Sequence record: NC_041936.1
Length of the DNA stretch: 64,000 nucleotides
DNA from: Escherichia phage ECD7
Direction: 5' to 3' (one strand)
Made by a program: the position numbers and the translations under genes. Positions 3,170 to 62,068 of the stretch are shown piece after piece. Each line of letters begins with the position of its first letter. Within the stretch, counting starts at the first letter, position 1. Below the pieces are notes generated by a model, which did no database searches, was not told the origin of the DNA, and saw only the letters and a list, made by a program, of their open reading frames with translations.

Positions 3170-3203
3170 TCCCATTATAGAGAATCTCCCTTGTATGTCA
3201 AGT
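3170..3203 (-). promoter_or_regulatory. sigma70-type early promoter
   Basis: Minus strand TTGACA-16nt-TATAAT just after the gene 39 stop. Confidence 0.5.
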
Positions 3204-6573: not shown

Positions 6574-7965
6574 TCAAATATAGTCTACTCGATACCGCGC
6601 ACGGGTAACACCCACATATAATAACTGCATTGCCAATTCAAAGTCAACATTGTCTGTACACATGCAAGGAGTATACAGGAACACGCGGTCTACGCTGATC
6701 CCTTGTGACTTATGAATGGTGCAAGCTGGTAATGCTTTTACATTCAAGAACATACGCTTCATCGTCCAGAATGAATCCCAATCTGGTTTAAATTTTGGAT
6801 TCTCTTTCTTCATTTCGCGATATTGTCCGGCGACCGTATTCAGATAGATAGAGAAAATGTTCTTCTGACGTTGTTCTGTCAGAATGTTGATTTCTACTAA
6901 ATCTGGTTTATCTGTAGTGATTCCGACTGCATCTAAACCTACTTTCTGATTTAGGATTTCTTTGTCTTCGTCATCATCGACGCTTTCCACTTTCAGAGTA
7001 TATCCTAAAACTGGTTGCGGATCTACCCCCGTGCAACGTAATGTAAATTCACGCGGGATGACCTCTTTAACTCGGATCATCTCACCATTGTTAAAAATAA
7101 CATTGGGAATCTTCTTCCCGCGTTCATCTCGCAGATATTCGATCAATGGTTCCTGAGTAACCAGAATTTCATCTACAATCACTGGTTCATCGGTGTTATA
7201 AACGCGCTTACGTACAATTTCATTGAGTTTTTCGACGCTCTTGTTAGTGTAGGCCAGAATACGGTTTTCTAGAAGGTCTTCCGGCGTTTTAACGGTTTCG
7301 AAATAATGCTTCATAAACTCCGGCAGAGTTGAGCTATGGAATACACCCTCGTTACCGCACTGCTTTTCGAATACCCATTTACCGTTACGGACAGCGGTCG
7401 CCACATCAATTATTGGTGCATTGGACCGTTTAATCTCTGTGAGTTCTACATTCTGGAATCTTTCATCGGTGAAGAAAGGAGAGATCGACGTTGCACCGCT
7501 CGGATCAACTGGTCGTAACTGGTACAGATCACCAACGGCAATAATAACAATTCGACCGTTGATACTCTTCATGAGAATATCAAATAGTTTCTTATCGACC
7601 ATACTCGCTTCATCAACAATGATGATCTGAACATCATCTAGCTTAGGAGTATCTTTTTGCTCAAATACTTGAGTATCTTCATAGTTGGTCGGGTTTAGTC
7701 GCAGTAGTGCATGTAAAGTAAATGCTTGACGACCTACCGCTTTACTCAAAACTTTTTTAGCCTGGTGGGTGGGCGTTGCCAAAACCACACCAGTTACACC
7801 ACGGCGGACCATTTCCTGAACAATGAATTTCATCATTGCGGTTTTACCAGTACCCGCCGCACCCCGGACAGTTGTATGCTTCTTTTGTTCAATGCGTTTC
7901 ATTAGAACATCAAAAGCATGTTTTTGCCCGTCTGTTAACATATCGAAAGTTAATACTCTGCTCAT
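6574..7965 (-). CDS. dda: Dda DNA helicase (SF1)
   Basis: 463 aa; GAAGTGKT Walker A; LTDGQKHAFD and C-terminal LLYVGVTRARY resemble T4 Dda. Confidence 0.93.
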   Translation of the reverse strand: MSRVLTFDMLTDGQKHAFDVLMKRIEQKKHTTVRGAAGTGKTAMMKFIVQEMVRRGVTGVVLATPTHQAKKVLSKAVGRQAFTLHALLRLNPTNYEDTQVFEQKDTPKLDDVQIIIVDEASMVDKKLFDILMKSINGRIVIIAVGDLYQLRPVDPSGATSISPFFTDERFQNVELTEIKRSNAPIIDVATAVRNGKWVFEKQCGNEGVFHSSTLPEFMKHYFETVKTPEDLLENRILAYTNKSVEKLNEIVRKRVYNTDEPVIVDEILVTQEPLIEYLRDERGKKIPNVIFNNGEMIRVKEVIPREFTLRCTGVDPQPVLGYTLKVESVDDDEDKEILNQKVGLDAVGITTDKPDLVEINILTEQRQKNIFSIYLNTVAGQYREMKKENPKFKPDWDSFWTMKRMFLNVKALPACTIHKSQGISVDRVFLYTPCMCTDNVDFELAMQLLYVGVTRARYRVDYI

Positions 7966-8279
7966 TATCCTAAAATCCTCACCTTGCGAACACAGATAGT
8001 ATTGAGTTCTCGCCGTACCCGTTCTTTCTCATATTCAGGAATTTTGTATTCTATACCATCCCGAACAATTTCAGAAGACCGGATTATACCAAATTTTCTT
8101 TTAGGCACAACCTTGTATTTCGGTTCACCTGCCAATAGACTCTCACAATAATCTATCTGATCACACATTGACGCTAACGCAGCATCATGGGTTTCGCAAG
8201 TTAGGACGCGACCCTTCGCGTCCACTGAGTATTGAAAGAATCCGTCTTTATCACGATAACATACAGCAAATACATGCAT
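7965..8279 (-). CDS. hypothetical protein (dda.1 position)
   Basis: 104-aa ORF, start overlaps dda stop. Confidence 0.45.
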   Translation of the reverse strand: MHVFAVCYRDKDGFFQYSVDAKGRVLTCETHDAALASMCDQIDYCESLLAGEPKYKVVPKRKFGIIRSSEIVRDGIEYKIPEYEKERVRRELNTICVRKVRILG

Positions 8280-9034
8280 TATAAACCTACCTTAGCTTTC
8301 ATCAATTCAATCCACGACGCATCAATCGGAAGCCCGTATTTCACGCGTTCTTTTTGTGCTGGCGTTAAGTTCTCATACTTAGAAAGAGATTCAATCAAAA
8401 CGCTGGTATATTTTAGCACGATTTCGGTATTGTTTGCAATAGCCTTAAGTTTTTCTTCTTTCTTGTTGATTTCGCTAAGTGCTTGCTTGAGGTCTGCAAT
8501 TTTCTGATAACGTTCTTCCATACGGAAGAGAGTATTTTTAATCGCTCGCTCGGCTGCCTCTGCTTTTTCCGGTTCGTTGTGCTTTTTGTGGCGCTCGATT
8601 GCTAATTTCTTTTCTTCGATTGCCATTTCCTGATTTTTGATGCGATTCTCGTTAAGTTCGATCCACTCGATGTACTTCGCACGTAGGGCAATTTCATCAT
8701 CAGAAAGTTTACCGTTAGTTCCTAGTTCCTGGATCTCTTTAAGAGATTCGATAGTGTGATTGCCACGGAAAGAATTATATTTCAGTTTAACCGGAATTAC
8801 ATTGCCATCAACATATCCCAGATTGCAATCAATGCGCTCTAATGAGAGTCCGTCATCACCTTCACCGAAAGCCTCACCTGAATAGGCGCAATGAGTCTGA
8901 CGGTAAATGTTACGCACAGTGACTAAGCTCATAGAGAAGTCTTTGTTGCGACGTGAAGCGCCAGCCATGATAGAGTTCAGACGGAAAACAACCAGCGCCA
9001 ATTCTTCGTTAGATTTAAAAGCAAACAGTTTCAT
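8279..9034 (-). CDS. hypothetical protein with C-terminal coiled coil (Srd-like by position only)
   Basis: 251 aa; position matches T4 srd; sequence similarity not verified. Confidence 0.4.
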   Translation of the reverse strand: MKLFAFKSNEELALVVFRLNSIMAGASRRNKDFSMSLVTVRNIYRQTHCAYSGEAFGEGDDGLSLERIDCNLGYVDGNVIPVKLKYNSFRGNHTIESLKEIQELGTNGKLSDDEIALRAKYIEWIELNENRIKNQEMAIEEKKLAIERHKKHNEPEKAEAAERAIKNTLFRMEERYQKIADLKQALSEINKKEEKLKAIANNTEIVLKYTSVLIESLSKYENLTPAQKERVKYGLPIDASWIELMKAKVGL

Positions 9035-9057
9035 AATTGATTCTCCTTAGTTGGTAT

Positions 9058-9094
9058 GTGTGTATTATTGTCTATCTGGTTTGTGCTGTCAACA
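9058..9094 (-). promoter_or_regulatory. sigma70-type early promoter
   Basis: Minus strand TTGACA then about 17 nt then AATAAT/TAATAC; followed by RBS and ATG at 9034. Confidence 0.45.
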
Positions 9095-9095
9095 C

Positions 9096-9599
9096 TTAAA
9101 TTAAAGAAAATTTGTAAATCTCTATCAGATCGCCGTTACACGCGTAAACTTCCTCGATCTCATCAAGGATCATGGTCGTCCCTGTCTTGTATATGCACTC
9201 TCGCTCATCTGCCAACATAGCATACAAAGACAGTCGAGTAGTCGGATTGTCATACTCTTTAGACACCACTCGGTCAATAGCATGTTCGTAATAATTCATG
9301 CAAGGCTTGGTAGGTTTTATTGCAATAATCTTTCCTGTTGCATAAACATCGGTTGCAAAGTCCTCTGCTGTTGATTGCAGTGGCGTAAAGCTCATAGGAC
9401 GCTCTACAACGAAAGAATCACCTACAATTAAGGTATCCAGCTTACGGCCTTCTCTTTTGCTCACACCGCGATACAAGGCTTCATGATGCACTAACCGTTC
9501 AGTCTTTTCGATCAATCCATTAAGGATCGACATATCGATATTTTCTTTAGAGTTCATCACTTCATCAATGATGTTAAGTTCTTCTGGTGTAAATTGCAT
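9096..9599 (-). CDS. ADP-ribosyltransferase (ModA/ModB-like)
   Basis: 167 aa; R (LYRG), S-T-x (QSTAE) and E-x-E (ERE) motifs in the order expected for R-S-E ARTs; T4 modA/modB position. Confidence 0.55.
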   Translation of the reverse strand: MQFTPEELNIIDEVMNSKENIDMSILNGLIEKTERLVHHEALYRGVSKREGRKLDTLIVGDSFVVERPMSFTPLQSTAEDFATDVYATGKIIAIKPTKPCMNYYEHAIDRVVSKEYDNPTTRLSLYAMLADERECIYKTGTTMILDEIEEVYACNGDLIEIYKFSLI

Positions 9600-9600
9600 A

Positions 9601-9663
9601 ATAAAAAAGCCTCCAATCTTTCGACGGGAGGCATAATAAAACCATTATAGAGTAGTGTCAACT
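9601..9663 (-). promoter_or_regulatory. early promoter plus terminator-like hairpin that sequesters the ART gene Shine-Dalgarno
   Basis: Minus: TTGACA-17-TATTAT, then GCCTCC-12nt-GGAGGC hairpin, U6, ATG at 9599. Confidence 0.5.
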
Positions 9664-9668
9664 AATTT

Positions 9669-10187
9669 TTAGTAGCCGCGTTCTTGACGGGCGAAGTTTT
9701 CAGCATTTTTCAGATAGTACAGAATAAAGAGTTCTTGAGCGTCAATACCCAGCGGGATCATCTTGGACAGAATGAAGTGGATCGCGTCCACAAATTCAAA
9801 TTTCACTTCAAGCTGATCTTCTGGTGACAGTTCAGAGAATTTACGCGCTCGCGCTTCCCCGTGGTTCTTTTTCCACATTTTCCAGATTGCGCTTGCATCT
9901 TTACCATTGGACATTCCACCCAGCGATGTGTAAAGCTCTCGTGTTTCGTCTGCGATAGCGTCATCCATCCGTTGCATCCAATCCAGCATTTCACCGCAAG
10001 TCTCTAGCTTAGTTGGGTTTGGGACCCAATCAAATTTTTCGGATAATGCAACCTGCAAACCAGTTTGCATTTCGAGCATCACCTGAAACGGATCTTTACC
10101 TTCTGCAATCGCGTGATGATATGCGGCGATAGCCGCGTTAATATCTTTTTCGTTAACCAGACCAGCACAAGAATTAAATTCTGACAT
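9669..10187 (-). CDS. 56: dCTP/dUTP pyrophosphatase gp56 (MazG-like)
   Basis: ATG at 10185-10187 with GAGGTG SD (track start is GTG at 10193); position between mod and 61. Confidence 0.65.
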   Translation of the reverse strand: MSEFNSCAGLVNEKDINAAIAAYHHAIAEGKDPFQVMLEMQTGLQVALSEKFDWVPNPTKLETCGEMLDWMQRMDDAIADETRELYTSLGGMSNGKDASAIWKMWKKNHGEARARKFSELSPEDQLEVKFEFVDAIHFILSKMIPLGIDAQELFILYYLKNAENFARQERGY

Positions 10188-10201
10188 ATTCACCTCATTA
10201 A

Positions 10202-11230
10202 TTAAAATTTACAATATTTCATAAACCGCATTTTAGCCATCAGACCTTGTACGGTGTTCTCTTTGATATATTCCATGATCTGGTCGCGTGTAGCGCCCTC
10301 GTCCTGAATCATGGCGTTAACGTCTTTAGAATGCCACGGGCAACGATCCCACAATACAATCTTTTCCCCTGCATTGATAAACTTTTCCAGTCGGTGCATT
10401 GTATCGGCTGACCGTGGTTCCGCATCAAGTACAAACACTCGCTGGTCTGGGAAAGGGATTTCATCTAATCCCAAAGTACCGCCAGTAATTGCACACCCGT
10501 TATCAATAAACAATGAATCGATCGGACCTTCTAAGAAATACACTGGCTTACTCGGATCGGCGCGTTCAAGACCATAGACCTTACTCGCCAACTCGTGAGT
10601 TTTAATCGTCATATATTTGGTCTTTCCGTAATCCTTTCTCAATGCTCGCCCCTGAATGGATTCTATCTTGTTCTCGCGGTTAAAGATAGGAATAACTAAA
10701 CGCGGTTCAGGTTGTGGATTCTTGAAAGTATCAGCCTTAATGTGATTTGCTACCTTTTGCCATTCTCTCGTGAAATAAAGAAGATCCCATTTATCGTGGG
10801 GAATGCAACGATCACTGACATACTTTATTATAGGATGATTAGCCGGAAGAGTATCTAATCTCTCGCAGAAAGGCAATGTTTGCACTTTCTTAATCTCCGG
10901 CTTTTCTACCTTTTTCAGTGGCTTGAACGTGGTGTTCTTGTGGTCGCCTTGTTCCTTCCGTCGTTCCATAAGCCATTCCCTGAATAGATCCGGCTTATAT
11001 TGTTTAAGAAATTCACCTAACGGCTGATTGTAGTTACAGTTGAAACATCCGGCTCGCAAACTATCTTTATAGGTATAGATACGGAATCGCGCCATTGTGC
11101 TATTCTTTTTGGAATCTCCGCAGATCGGACAACTTGCTACTAACGTAAATGAGTTAGTATGTAACCGCTTGAAATTTCGTTCGCCGTATAATGCTTTTTC
11201 GGCTATTTCATAATCTGCGTAGTAAATCAT
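10202..11230 (-). CDS. 61: DNA primase gp61
   Basis: 342 aa, same length as T4 gp61; N-terminal CPICGDS...CFNCNY zinc ribbon. Confidence 0.9.
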   Translation of the reverse strand: MIYYADYEIAEKALYGERNFKRLHTNSFTLVASCPICGDSKKNSTMARFRIYTYKDSLRAGCFNCNYNQPLGEFLKQYKPDLFREWLMERRKEQGDHKNTTFKPLKKVEKPEIKKVQTLPFCERLDTLPANHPIIKYVSDRCIPHDKWDLLYFTREWQKVANHIKADTFKNPQPEPRLVIPIFNRENKIESIQGRALRKDYGKTKYMTIKTHELASKVYGLERADPSKPVYFLEGPIDSLFIDNGCAITGGTLGLDEIPFPDQRVFVLDAEPRSADTMHRLEKFINAGEKIVLWDRCPWHSKDVNAMIQDEGATRDQIMEYIKENTVQGLMAKMRFMKYCKF

Positions 11231-11237
11231 AAGATCC

Positions 11238-11801
11238 TCACTGTATATTTTTACTTCTCTGCTTTCCTATCCAGATCCGTCTAACTGTTTCCGCATTAAC
11301 ATCATATATTTTTGCGATCTTTGCCGCAGATCCGGTTCCTTTTAGAGTTTTGATTTCTTCAATCTGATCTTTGGTTAATTTAGCCCAATGGTGTGCATCA
11401 CCATAACACGAACTCAGACCGTGTGTCAATGCATGAATCTGATTTTCTGATTGTGTAACCCATTCAAGATTATATAGGTCATGGTTTCTTTTGTTTCCAT
11501 CGATATGATTAACAAACGGCAAATTGTTTACGTTTGGTATAAACGCTTCTGCTTTTGCTCTGTGTATGTATATCGATAGAGATTTAACCCTAGACCCTGA
11601 ACTAGTTTTATTACCGTAAGGATCTCTGATTCTTGCTACGGCGTATCCACCGCTTCTTCCGGCTACAGATTCTCTATAAATCTTTCCTGTTTTCTTGTTT
11701 CTAATGCGTCCATATGAGCTAACCTCGTAGCCTGGCATTTCGACGCCCATATAAACAAGGTCTTTCCATTCTTCTGGATGTTCATCACAATACCGTTTCA
11801 T
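11238..11801 (-). CDS. free-standing HNH homing endonuclease (AP2/NUMOD-like N-terminus, C-terminal HTH)
   Basis: HIDGNKRNHDLYNLEWVTQSEN HNH motif; inserted between 61 and 56. Confidence 0.8.
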   Translation of the reverse strand: MKRYCDEHPEEWKDLVYMGVEMPGYEVSSYGRIRNKKTGKIYRESVAGRSGGYAVARIRDPYGNKTSSGSRVKSLSIYIHRAKAEAFIPNVNNLPFVNHIDGNKRNHDLYNLEWVTQSENQIHALTHGLSSCYGDAHHWAKLTKDQIEEIKTLKGTGSAAKIAKIYDVNAETVRRIWIGKQRSKNIQ

Positions 11802-12748: not shown

Positions 12749-13384
12749 TTAATCGAATGTAGAAAGCAAATGTTTTGTTTCTTTCAGTTGTCGTTCAAGA
12801 TTTTTGCGTTTCTCTTTAAGTTGCATTTTAGCATTATTTCTCTCTCTTGTAACCTCTTTATCAATGCTCTTATTCCAGTTATCAATATCAGAATAAGTTG
12901 GCATACCCAATTCTAGACCTAATGCGGTTGGATGCAGGGTAACAGTCCATAAACCGCTAATCTTCTTAAATAGGTCGGGGTGTAGTGTACTATCTACATC
13001 TTCCGGTGTCAACTCTTTTTCTTCTTTCAGTGGTGGGATCTCGTCATATGGTTCCAGTGCATTTACTTTAATATCAGATACCTCATCAAAGAATCCGCGT
13101 ACATCCGCAGGAAATACACAAGCAATTTCCCAACCGTGATCACGAAGAGAAGTAATATTTTTCACTCCCCCGCCATGTGTGATGATTGATGTGACATTGC
13201 CATCAAGGTCCACCGAATTTACGAGAAATGGCTTATCGTCTGTCAGATCATTATAAAACTGTGCTTCGGCTGTAGTCATCTCCAGAAACAGATCTCGGAT
13301 CGGACGACCATCAGGTGCGTTACCTTCCTTGAGAGTATAAAAGCGACTTACGATCCATTTTGGCGGTAAAGTATTAGCGATCAT
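12749..13384 (-). CDS. hypothetical protein (61.x region)
   Basis: 211-aa ORF. Confidence 0.45.
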   Translation of the reverse strand: MIANTLPPKWIVSRFYTLKEGNAPDGRPIRDLFLEMTTAEAQFYNDLTDDKPFLVNSVDLDGNVTSIITHGGGVKNITSLRDHGWEIACVFPADVRGFFDEVSDIKVNALEPYDEIPPLKEEKELTPEDVDSTLHPDLFKKISGLWTVTLHPTALGLELGMPTYSDIDNWNKSIDKEVTRERNNAKMQLKEKRKNLERQLKETKHLLSTFD

Positions 13385-22405: not shown

Positions 22406-23092
22406 TTAGTCGGTGTAGCTGGAGTCAAGGTCACACGCGATCATATAAGATACGGTTTCACTTGCCAGCCATACAGCCTTACGGCGAGTGAAGCTCAGTT
22501 TGTAATCGCCGAAGTCAGTAGCAACCAGTTTCATGTTATCTTTACGAATAAAGAAATGGAAGTCTGCGGTTCCGGTATATTCGCCCATATCAAGACAAAA
22601 CATCTCATTAGGATTATTTTTGTCAATCTCTTCCCAACCTTTGATCATCAGACGACCATCAATCGGAAGAAATTCAAGGCGATCCACTTTAAGCTGATTG
22701 CTCATTTTCATAAGCTGTTTCAGATCGTCGTTGCTCAGTTCGTAATCTACATCGCTTGCAGGTGGAGTAACTCGGCCTTTCGGTGATACGATAGCAGCAG
22801 CACTAGCACCAGGGTAATTAATTTTCAGACGATCATTAGACACACGAATGTTACCAGTGCGGTCATCAACCGTAATATCTGCTTCATCGCCTACCAGATT
22901 CAGAATACCCAGGAAAGAGTTAAGATCATAGATCCCGATTTCGTGTTCCAGTTCTTGATTCAGAGTCGCTTCACCATATACAACGTTTGTCATGTTTTTG
23001 GTGATTAGGACGTTTCCTTTTTTCAGGATGATACCTGGGTTAATAGCGGAAAAGTTTTTCAGGGTAGCAATGGTTTCTTTAGTCAGTTTCAT
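22406..23092 (-). CDS. 45: sliding clamp gp45
   Basis: ATG 23090-23092; MKLTKETIATLKNFSAINPGI resembles T4 gp45 N-terminus. Confidence 0.9.
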   Translation of the reverse strand: MKLTKETIATLKNFSAINPGIILKKGNVLITKNMTNVVYGEATLNQELEHEIGIYDLNSFLGILNLVGDEADITVDDRTGNIRVSNDRLKINYPGASAAAIVSPKGRVTPPASDVDYELSNDDLKQLMKMSNQLKVDRLEFLPIDGRLMIKGWEEIDKNNPNEMFCLDMGEYTGTADFHFFIRKDNMKLVATDFGDYKLSFTRRKAVWLASETVSYMIACDLDSSYTD

Positions 23093-54933: not shown

Positions 54934-54963
54934 AACGAAAAAGCCAACCCTTTTCGGATTGGC
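54934..54963 (-). terminator. intrinsic terminator after the GrcA-like gene
   Basis: Minus: GCCAAUCC-gaaaag-GGUUGGC then UUUUUCGUUUU. Confidence 0.6.
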
Positions 54964-62061: not shown

Positions 62062-62068
62062 TATAAAA

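Follow-up and report, generated by a model that had tools for sequence, protein, structure and literature searches.

The mod locus of Escherichia phage ECD7 (NC_041936.1) raises the question of which transcripts can serve to make its product, a putative ADP-ribosyltransferase (ART), when the Shine-Dalgarno (SD) sequence of the gene lies inside a hairpin that directly follows an early promoter. Because over-expression of ModB kills E. coli and the synthesis of ModA is very toxic (2010 T4 reviews), the restriction of Mod enzymes in time and dose is a relevant question. We analysed a stretch of 64,000 nt of this DNA (hereafter the window), which comes from a T4-type coliphage of the genus Krischvirus (RB49/GEC-3S/phi1-like). 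The answer we consider most probable (roughly 70%) is that mod is a single Mod-family (ModA/ModB-type) arginine ART gene in an insulated early cassette, whose enzyme is made only from its own early promoter. The gene and the elements of the 69-nt spacer that separates it from gene 56 are the following:

9096–9599, minus strand: mod gene (modB in RB49, GEC-3S and phi1), an open reading frame (ORF) of 167 amino acids with an ATG start, for a putative Mod-family arginine mono-ADP-ribosyltransferase.
9656–9661, minus strand: −35 hexamer TTGACA of an early sigma70-type promoter, read from the sequence, annotated as minus_35_signal in GEC-3S and kept in JSE.
9633–9638, minus strand: −10 hexamer TATTAT, after a 17-nt spacer, with an 11/12 consensus match, read from the sequence and annotated as minus_10_signal in GEC-3S.
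9609–9632, minus strand: stem-loop GCCUCC-c-GUC-GAAA-GAU-u-GGAGGC, from folding, equal to the TransTerm terminator at RB49 9430–9453.
9632–9627, minus strand: outer 5′ arm GCCUCC of the stem-loop, from folding.
9626–9615, minus strand: bulged C9626, inner stem GUC/GAU with GAAA loop (9625–9616) and bulged U9615, from folding.
9614–9609, minus strand: 3′ arm GGAGGC of the stem-loop, from folding.
9610–9614, minus strand: SD sequence GGAGG, within the 3′ arm and 10 nt 5′ of the AUG, read from the sequence; Ec_Makalu_002 has a ribosome-binding site annotated inside the terminator here.
9603–9608, minus strand: U6 tract of the intrinsic terminator, read from the sequence; eight of the nine bases past the stem are T.
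9625–9626, minus strand: predicted transcription start at C9626 or G9625 (the 7th or 8th nt past the −10), just 3′ of the 5′ arm, placed by the spacing rule.

The hairpin adjoins the −10 hexamer without a gap, so that its 5′ arm occupies positions −6 to −1 of the mod promoter, and its 3′ arm contains the sole SD sequence of mod; the U6 tract is followed by AUU and then by the AUG at 9599–9597. The spacer is a compact PeSL (promoter-early stem-loop), the combination of a strong sigma70-like promoter with a stem-loop known from RB49 and phi1 (Arbiol 2010), and its promoter and terminator interlock: six bases directly past the −10 would serve as the 5′ arm of the terminator, with the SD as its 3′ arm and the U6 tract behind it. 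Polymerase arriving from genes 61 and 56 would transcribe both arms and the hairpin would form; most of these upstream transcripts would end in the U tract, and those that escape termination would carry a masked SD and be poorly translated. Polymerase initiating at TTGACA-17-TATTAT would start at 9626/9625, just past the 5′ arm, and its RNA would have no outer stem, would not be terminated and would present an open SD. Because read-through RNA would be terminated or masked and own-promoter RNA would escape both, synthesis of the enzyme would be tied to the sigma70-type early promoter of the gene and would stop at early-promoter shut-off. Gene, promoter, terminator and type of cassette are already public knowledge; the SD masking with a start inside the stem was added by a first-pass annotation of this DNA, a plausible proposal that falls under a known type of mechanism.

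The promoter that this annotation had proposed is present at 9661–9633 and has been marked independently of it, both in the GenBank record of GEC-3S (9633–9661) and as the RB49 early promoter Pe:9496 (Nolan 2006), whose RB49 coordinates 9446–9496 correspond to window positions 9625–9675 and enclose the −10. On its upstream side, the −35 adjoins the AT-rich 3′ end of gene 56 (CTACTAAAAATTAG). The promoter and terminator signals of the window are not chance occurrences: on the minus strand there are 33 sigma70 matches of at least 11/12, on the plus strand one (20 dinucleotide shuffles averaged 1.2 per strand), and hairpins of dG ≤ −12 with at least six T in the next eight bases number nine on the minus strand, that of mod included (0.25 in shuffles). 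The 51-nt promoter model of Nolan has its 3′ end at 9625 and, according to that paper, fits the consensus derived from early RB49 5′ ends that had been mapped before (Nolan 2006). With the 5′ arm at positions −6 to −1 and a canonical start 7–8 nt past the −10, own-promoter RNA would lack the 5′ arm. The earlier claim that such RNA begins inside the stem and exposes the SD agrees with the geometry (the place of the arm and the end of the promoter model) and with the low predicted cost of opening the SD (1.5–5 kcal/mol), while the start position itself is one that we infer. A TATAAT within the promoter spacer (9649–9644) was considered as a −10 hexamer and rejected, lying 6 nt from TTGACA and being lost in JSE. 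Together with the −10 it also builds a small AU inverted repeat (AUAAUG-GUUU-UAUUAU, window 9649–9633, minus strand), for which folding is predicted in RNA from upstream and of which JSE has lost the TATAAT half.

The hairpin with its U tract is likewise present as first described, from 9632 to 9603 with the SD in its 3′ arm, and it forms when the leader is folded, with a centroid energy of −15 kcal/mol in an 86-nt context (−13.8 for the 24-mer alone) and a z-score of −3.5 for the 59-nt mod leader, whose energy was reached by none of 200 shuffles. Its terminator features comprise 9 bp with seven G-C pairs (dG −13.8 to −15), followed by UUUUUUAUU. It coincides exactly with the TransTerm terminator ‘modB<--56’ of Nolan 2006 (RB49 9430–9453, confidence 100, 10 bp), and a terminator is annotated at this place in the records of Ec_Makalu_002 and vB_Eco_TB34. 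An Rfam scan returned no family at the mod hairpin, and a sub-threshold match to isrN, on the other strand inside gene 56, was dismissed. In RNAs that start at or upstream of 9632, the predicted probability that GGAGG is unpaired is about 0, and opening the SD is predicted to cost 10–14 kcal/mol in RNA containing the 5′ arm vs the 1.5–5 kcal/mol in RNA from 9626/9625, a difference of about 8–10 kcal/mol between the two classes of transcripts. The proposal that read-through RNA is terminated or has its ribosome-binding site masked is in this way supported computationally, by the TransTerm confidence and by the cost of opening the SD.

PeSL stem-loops have been proposed to terminate or attenuate upstream transcription, one of them having been on a par with the rrnB T1 terminator when assayed with a reporter, and five positional subclasses have been distinguished, including one with the stem-loop downstream of the −10 and right ahead of the start (Arbiol 2010). 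The mod cassette has the stem-loop position of this subclass, and it combines an 11/12 sigma70 promoter and AT-rich upstream sequence with the subsequent GGAGG-N10-ATG, as expected of a PeSL promoter. It shares with the PeSLs of RB49 and phi1 (Arbiol 2010; Comeau 2014) the phage group, the consensus sigma70 early promoter, the AT-rich upstream sequence, the stem-loop, the SD with start codon and the intergenic location. The window is rich in PeSLs, mostly with the stem-loop in the −35/−10 interval or overlapping the −10, and the bases after the −10 read ACACCC and A-TCGAAAC in other PeSLs of the window vs GCCTCC and CG-TCGAAAG at mod. Its about 35 units of promoter, SD and start codon include none but mod with the SD inside a hairpin, and the U tract of mod is the best among them. 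At mod, the SD itself forms the 3′ arm and a full U tract follows, whereas in the other units the SD lies outside the stem. SD masking is not discussed in the PeSL papers (Arbiol 2010; Comeau 2014).

Within Krischvirus, the promoter-hairpin element of mod is kept at an identity of at least 94.5% in 57 of 57 records, with changes confined to the bulge (U to C), the length of the U tract (5–7 U) and, in one contig, a −10 variant TATTGT. JSE carries a homing-endonuclease gene on the opposite strand that abuts the −35, so that the upstream context is replaced, and the promoter spacer is changed; TTGACA-17-TATTAT and the hairpin are intact. In the IMG/VR contig L006 (IMGVR_UViG_3300005711_000037), the mod cassette is 92–98% identical to that of the window vs 42–84% for the bodies of gene 56 and mod, and the flanking genes for primase, srd and ORF012 are 90–100% identical. 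Over window positions 7900–10450, the two promoter cassettes, taken with some 50 nt of the coding sequence next to them, show 92–100% identity between L006 and the window. From its sequence, L006 looks like an allele replacement with breakpoints at PeSLs, which would match the prediction of PeSL-mediated shuffling; JSE and L006 both place mosaic boundaries at the mod cassette, as is the case for the PeSLs of RB49 and phi1.

The same logic recurs independently in hairpins at the start of modB outside the genus. Strong versions were found in 11 T4-like phages of other genera (seven genera of Straboviridae plus Marfavirus), namely T4, RB69, phiE142, JS98, S16, myPSH1140, MY02, pzk-kv8, X20, Gravdalen and PEi26 (loci L003:4615–4700, minus strand, equal to T4 13114–13199; L007–L013, L015, L017 and L018). 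In all 11, modB is preceded by an early promoter resembling GTTTAC-16/17-TATGAT and by a hairpin of 13–20 bp whose 5′ arm consists of the −10 hexamer with the following bases and whose 3′ arm consists of the SD and the AUG. The minimum free energies range from −17.6 to −26.1 kcal/mol over 59 nt, with z-scores of −4.5 to −7.9, and 0 of 200 shuffles reached any of them. Differences between the stems of different genera are paired (GAUAGC/GCUAUC, GAUGACC/GGUCAUC, GUAUCUC/GAGAUAC), and many pair types are compensatory; this variety was tabulated by 3′-arm position from folds of the individual sequences, and as part of it reflects register shifts, it is weaker than column-wise covariation. An alignment of the cross-genus modB leaders with MAFFT followed by RNAalifold gave no consensus structure, loop lengths and stem registers being different. 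Since none of the 11 hairpins has a U tract, termination cannot explain them. The modA leaders of the same phages have either no such hairpin or a weak version of 5–7 bp.

These leaders resemble that of Krischvirus in combining an early promoter, the discriminator of which falls within the 5′ arm, with an SD located in the 3′ arm. Their stems are longer and include the −10 and the AUG, whereas the Krischvirus stem starts right past the −10, spares the AUG and adds U6. We entertain, at slightly less than even odds, the idea that the Krischvirus element is a variant of a family-wide gate, in which a modB-type early promoter is embedded in a hairpin that hides the SD (usually the AUG too) and translation would occur only from immediate-early RNA of the own promoter, never from read-through RNA; the Krischviruses would have shortened the hairpin and fused it to a U tract, giving a 24-nt element that is discriminator, terminator and anti-SD/SD pair at once. 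The modB leader hairpin is not mentioned in two 2010 T4 reviews, and a description in older T4 literature is possible. The conserved hairpin across genera is the most interesting by-product of our analysis. Two further leaders show related pairings: in T4 mrh.2 (L003, start codon at locus position 6733), the SD GGAGAGU pairs with a promoter-region ACUUUCC that adjoins the −35, and JS98 modA has weak CUUUC/GAGGAG pairings past the −10. Among the early genes of T4, anti-SD sequences embedded in promoters may be a more general feature.

The first-pass annotation had recognized in the 167-aa protein the motif order R…S-T…E-x-E typical of ARTs. These motifs are present, with R44 in LYRGV, S70-F-T72 and E132-R-E134, at the following codons of the translated ORF:

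9470–9468, minus strand: R44.
9392–9390, minus strand: S70.
9206–9204, minus strand: E132.
9200–9198, minus strand: E134.

A profile match to PHROG 832 (phrog_832, ‘RNA polymerase ADP-ribosylase’) at E = 1e-20 bears out the ART family, on which Pfam-A alone would have misled. In BLASTP, the protein matches T4 ModB with 33% identity over 113 aa (E = 8e-11) and T4 ModA with 23% over 159 aa (E = 2e-6). An exhaustive hidden Markov model (HMM) search of 1.8 billion representatives recovered only 25 relatives, compared with 3 by a word-indexed protein search, and we therefore consider this a small phage family. R44, G45, S70, E132 and E134 are invariant in the alignment of 25 family members that includes T4 ModA and ModB, and R44 is aligned with R73 of T4 ModB, mutation of which removes both ADP-ribosylation and RNAylation activity (PMC10468400). 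An AlphaFold2 model (predicted local distance difference test score 95.1, predicted template modelling score 0.88) gave 103 Foldseek matches to the PDB at E ≤ 1e-3, and all 50 listed were R-S-E ARTs, with Certhrax, C3, iota Ia/CDTa, VIP2, ExoS/T and HopU1 as best matches. Sequence searches of Pfam-A, NCBIfam and the PDB returned no match, which for Pfam-A is uninformative on ART membership because T4 ModA and ModB are likewise unmatched in the copy used. The closest homologues of Mod carry a precomputed Pfam family, PF26816, in the protein database; the Pfam-A copy searched holds no matching model, and PF26816 is either newer than this copy or absent from it. Homology, motifs and modelled fold together support the assignment of Mod as a Mod-family ADP-ribosyltransferase.

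The initial designation ‘ModA-like’ holds as far as ART family membership is concerned, and the choice of ModA over ModB is neither confirmed nor contradicted: the subtype HMM scores are close (63.0 bits for the ModA set and 71.5 for the ModB set), the best BLAST matches are ModA proteins, and a neighbour-joining distance tree places Mod basally. Resemblance to modB, on the other hand, is seen in the S-F-T motif and in the leader hairpin. On sequence grounds, ‘ModA-like’ appears as defensible as the ‘ModB’ of the databases, with neither established; depending on the subtype, the targets of the enzyme would be the RNA polymerase alpha subunit (ModA) or S1, EF-Tu and trigger factor along with RNAylation (ModB). 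ModB attracts current interest because it RNAylates rS1 and rL2, attaching NAD-capped RNAs to these ribosomal proteins, and its inactivation lowers the T4 burst size (PMC10468400). The product of mod shares with T4 ModA and ModB near full-length homology, the R-S-ExE residues, the dda-srd-mod neighbourhood and control by an early promoter, and differs in its length of 167 aa, which lacks an N-terminal extension of roughly 30 residues, in its 23–33% identity and in being encoded by one gene, not two. With the C3-like and binary-toxin R-S-E ARTs (Certhrax, C3bot, iota Ia, CDTa, VIP2, ExoS/T, HopU1) it shares the fold and the motif order (Foldseek probability 1.0, TM-score 0.5–0.6); the identity is 10–15%, and the phage protein is a minimal single domain without delivery or binding domains.

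For the leader, the closest precedents are T4 e, soc, 49 and I-TevI, in which long upstream transcripts sequester the SD and/or AUG and transcripts from a proximal promoter, lacking the 5′ strand, are translated (PMC3014915). In these genes, which have an inhibitory hairpin at the translation start, the promoter lies inside the DNA coding for the hairpin's 5′ strand; at mod the geometry fits a start past that strand, and the SD is predicted to be paired in upstream RNA. The internal promoter of the T4 genes is a gp55 late promoter that provides a switch from early-off to late-on, whereas that of mod is a sigma70 early promoter and would distinguish own-promoter from read-through RNA; unlike those of the T4 genes, the mod hairpin doubles as an intrinsic terminator.

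The arrangement at mod could also be that of a plain terminator followed by a restart promoter, in which the hairpin only ends and stabilises the 61/56 transcript, and the SD falls within it merely through the fitting of a GC-rich stem into the 69-nt spacer, without a translational role. The general proposal of PeSL stem-loops as terminators, shown for one of them, favours such an arrangement, as do the eight other canonical terminators of the window, none of which involves an SD (most precede a −35), and the lack of stem covariation within Krischvirus. We nevertheless consider it unlikely, as a hairpin without a U tract, by which SD and AUG are sequestered, is preserved in the mod leaders of other T4-like genera; such hairpins cannot be terminators and therefore point to selection for masking. 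The GGAGG inside the arm is moreover a strong SD at the normal spacing of 10 nt. A further possibility is self-attenuation, with transcription beginning upstream of the stem or right at its first base (for instance from the spacer TATAAT or at 9632–9630), whereby every mod mRNA would carry the hairpin and the toxic enzyme would be kept low by termination and masking. The TATAAT at 9649–9644 is a perfect hexamer, RNAs from 9632 or 9630 are still predicted to sequester the SD, and a PeSL at 22428 of the window has a hairpin that starts at about +1. The same TATAAT, only 6 nt away from TTGACA, has no usable −35 of its own; JSE has lost it and L006 differs around it, while TTGACA-17-TATTAT is kept; sigma70 starts 1–3 nt past a −10 are not expected, and the RB49 promoter model of Nolan puts the start at about 9626. 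Self-attenuation therefore seems quite improbable. Still more remote is that the element mainly governs the fate of the RNA and not ribosome access, by hiding the SD GGAG of long transcripts from the phage endoribonuclease RegB or by stabilising 3′ ends, or that the cassette is kept chiefly as a module through which genes are shuffled by recombination. Cleavage by RegB occurs at GGAG in the SDs of early genes and is prevented by secondary structure (PMC3014915), RB49 has regB, and both the mosaic of L006 and the insertion in JSE break at the edges of the cassette, as PeSL-mediated shuffling predicts. Such roles are compatible with the insulated cassette, yet they leave the placement of the 5′ arm at exactly −6 to −1 unexplained, and the sequence 3′ of the mod GGAG is U-rich, whereas S1 stimulates RegB via A-rich sequence 3′ of the cut.

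Several points weigh against expression from the own promoter only. When the RNA is extended 3′ to 9450, the difference between the two classes of transcripts shrinks to 8.8 vs 8.5 kcal/mol for opening the whole 30S footprint; for the SD alone a difference persists under the same extension (6.6 vs 2.5 kcal/mol). In promoter-proximal RNA, the SD is predicted to pair weakly with codons about 18–20, and if termination is efficient, masking of the SD would have little to add. Being GC-rich, positions −6 to −1 could make initiation weaker or displace it, and the stem is invariant within Krischvirus, so that no covariation can be counted there. A literature search found no mapped start sites in RB49 or Krischvirus and no studies of termination or translation at the mod locus.

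The region around mod (8900–10300) matches GEC-3S at 99.4% identity, with equal coordinates, and RB49 at 99.1%, and the gene at 9096–9599 (minus strand) is labelled modB in about 57 public genomes; Krischviruses have one Mod-type gene vs two in T4. The genes for primase (61), gene 56, mod, srd, ORF012 and dda follow each other in this order, all on the minus strand, and mod has these neighbours:

9669–10193, minus strand: gene 56 (dCTPase/dUTPase-like), the 5′ neighbour of mod, from the ORF, public annotation and Pfam dUTPase_2.
9064–9092, minus strand: srd early promoter TTGACA-17-AATAAT, 4 nt past the mod stop codon, read from the sequence and annotated in GEC-3S.

As the srd promoter adjoins the mod stop codon, mod is a single-gene cassette bracketed by two early promoters. 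Endonuclease insertions around the locus vary between phages. Downstream of its primase gene, at 11238–11801 (minus strand), the window bears an ORF of 187 aa that contains an HNH-like motif (NHIDGNKRNH...N), in the place of which GEC-3S and RB49 carry three small ORFs; the homing-endonuclease gene of JSE (L020 1–94), directly upstream of the mod promoter and on the opposite strand, is a different one.

Elsewhere on the minus strand of the window, a family of similar terminators is found at 62062–62042, 60088–60069, 54963–54943, 49126–49107, 46717–46698 and 35864–35845, for example GCCGAUCCGAAAGGGUCGGC followed by UUUUUCGUUUU, several of them with GAAA or UUCG loops. Five of the six sit about 17–31 nt upstream of a TTGACA promoter, none being seen after the one at 54963; terminator-then-promoter is the usual order, and the interleaved order at mod is the reverse. 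Two other PeSLs on this strand have hairpins closer to the start: that at 22428–22340 has the hairpin GGGGAGUAUAAAUACUCCCC beginning at about +1, followed by GUUUUAAUG, and that at 3201–3139 has the hairpin GGGAGAUUCUCUAUAAUGGGAGUCUCCC spanning the −10, followed by UUUUCUUUU. The own transcripts of these two PeSLs might contain all or part of a terminator-like hairpin.

The understanding of T4-type regulation remains unchanged by the mod element, which is a tidy example of known phage regulation and not a new kind of system. As a natural part of 53 nt that combines a strong promoter with an insulator against upstream transcription and a conditional ribosome-binding site, it could serve as an insulator in synthetic biology. 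If the conserved modB hairpins are functional, an example with an early promoter would join the promoter-in-hairpin gates known from T4 late genes.

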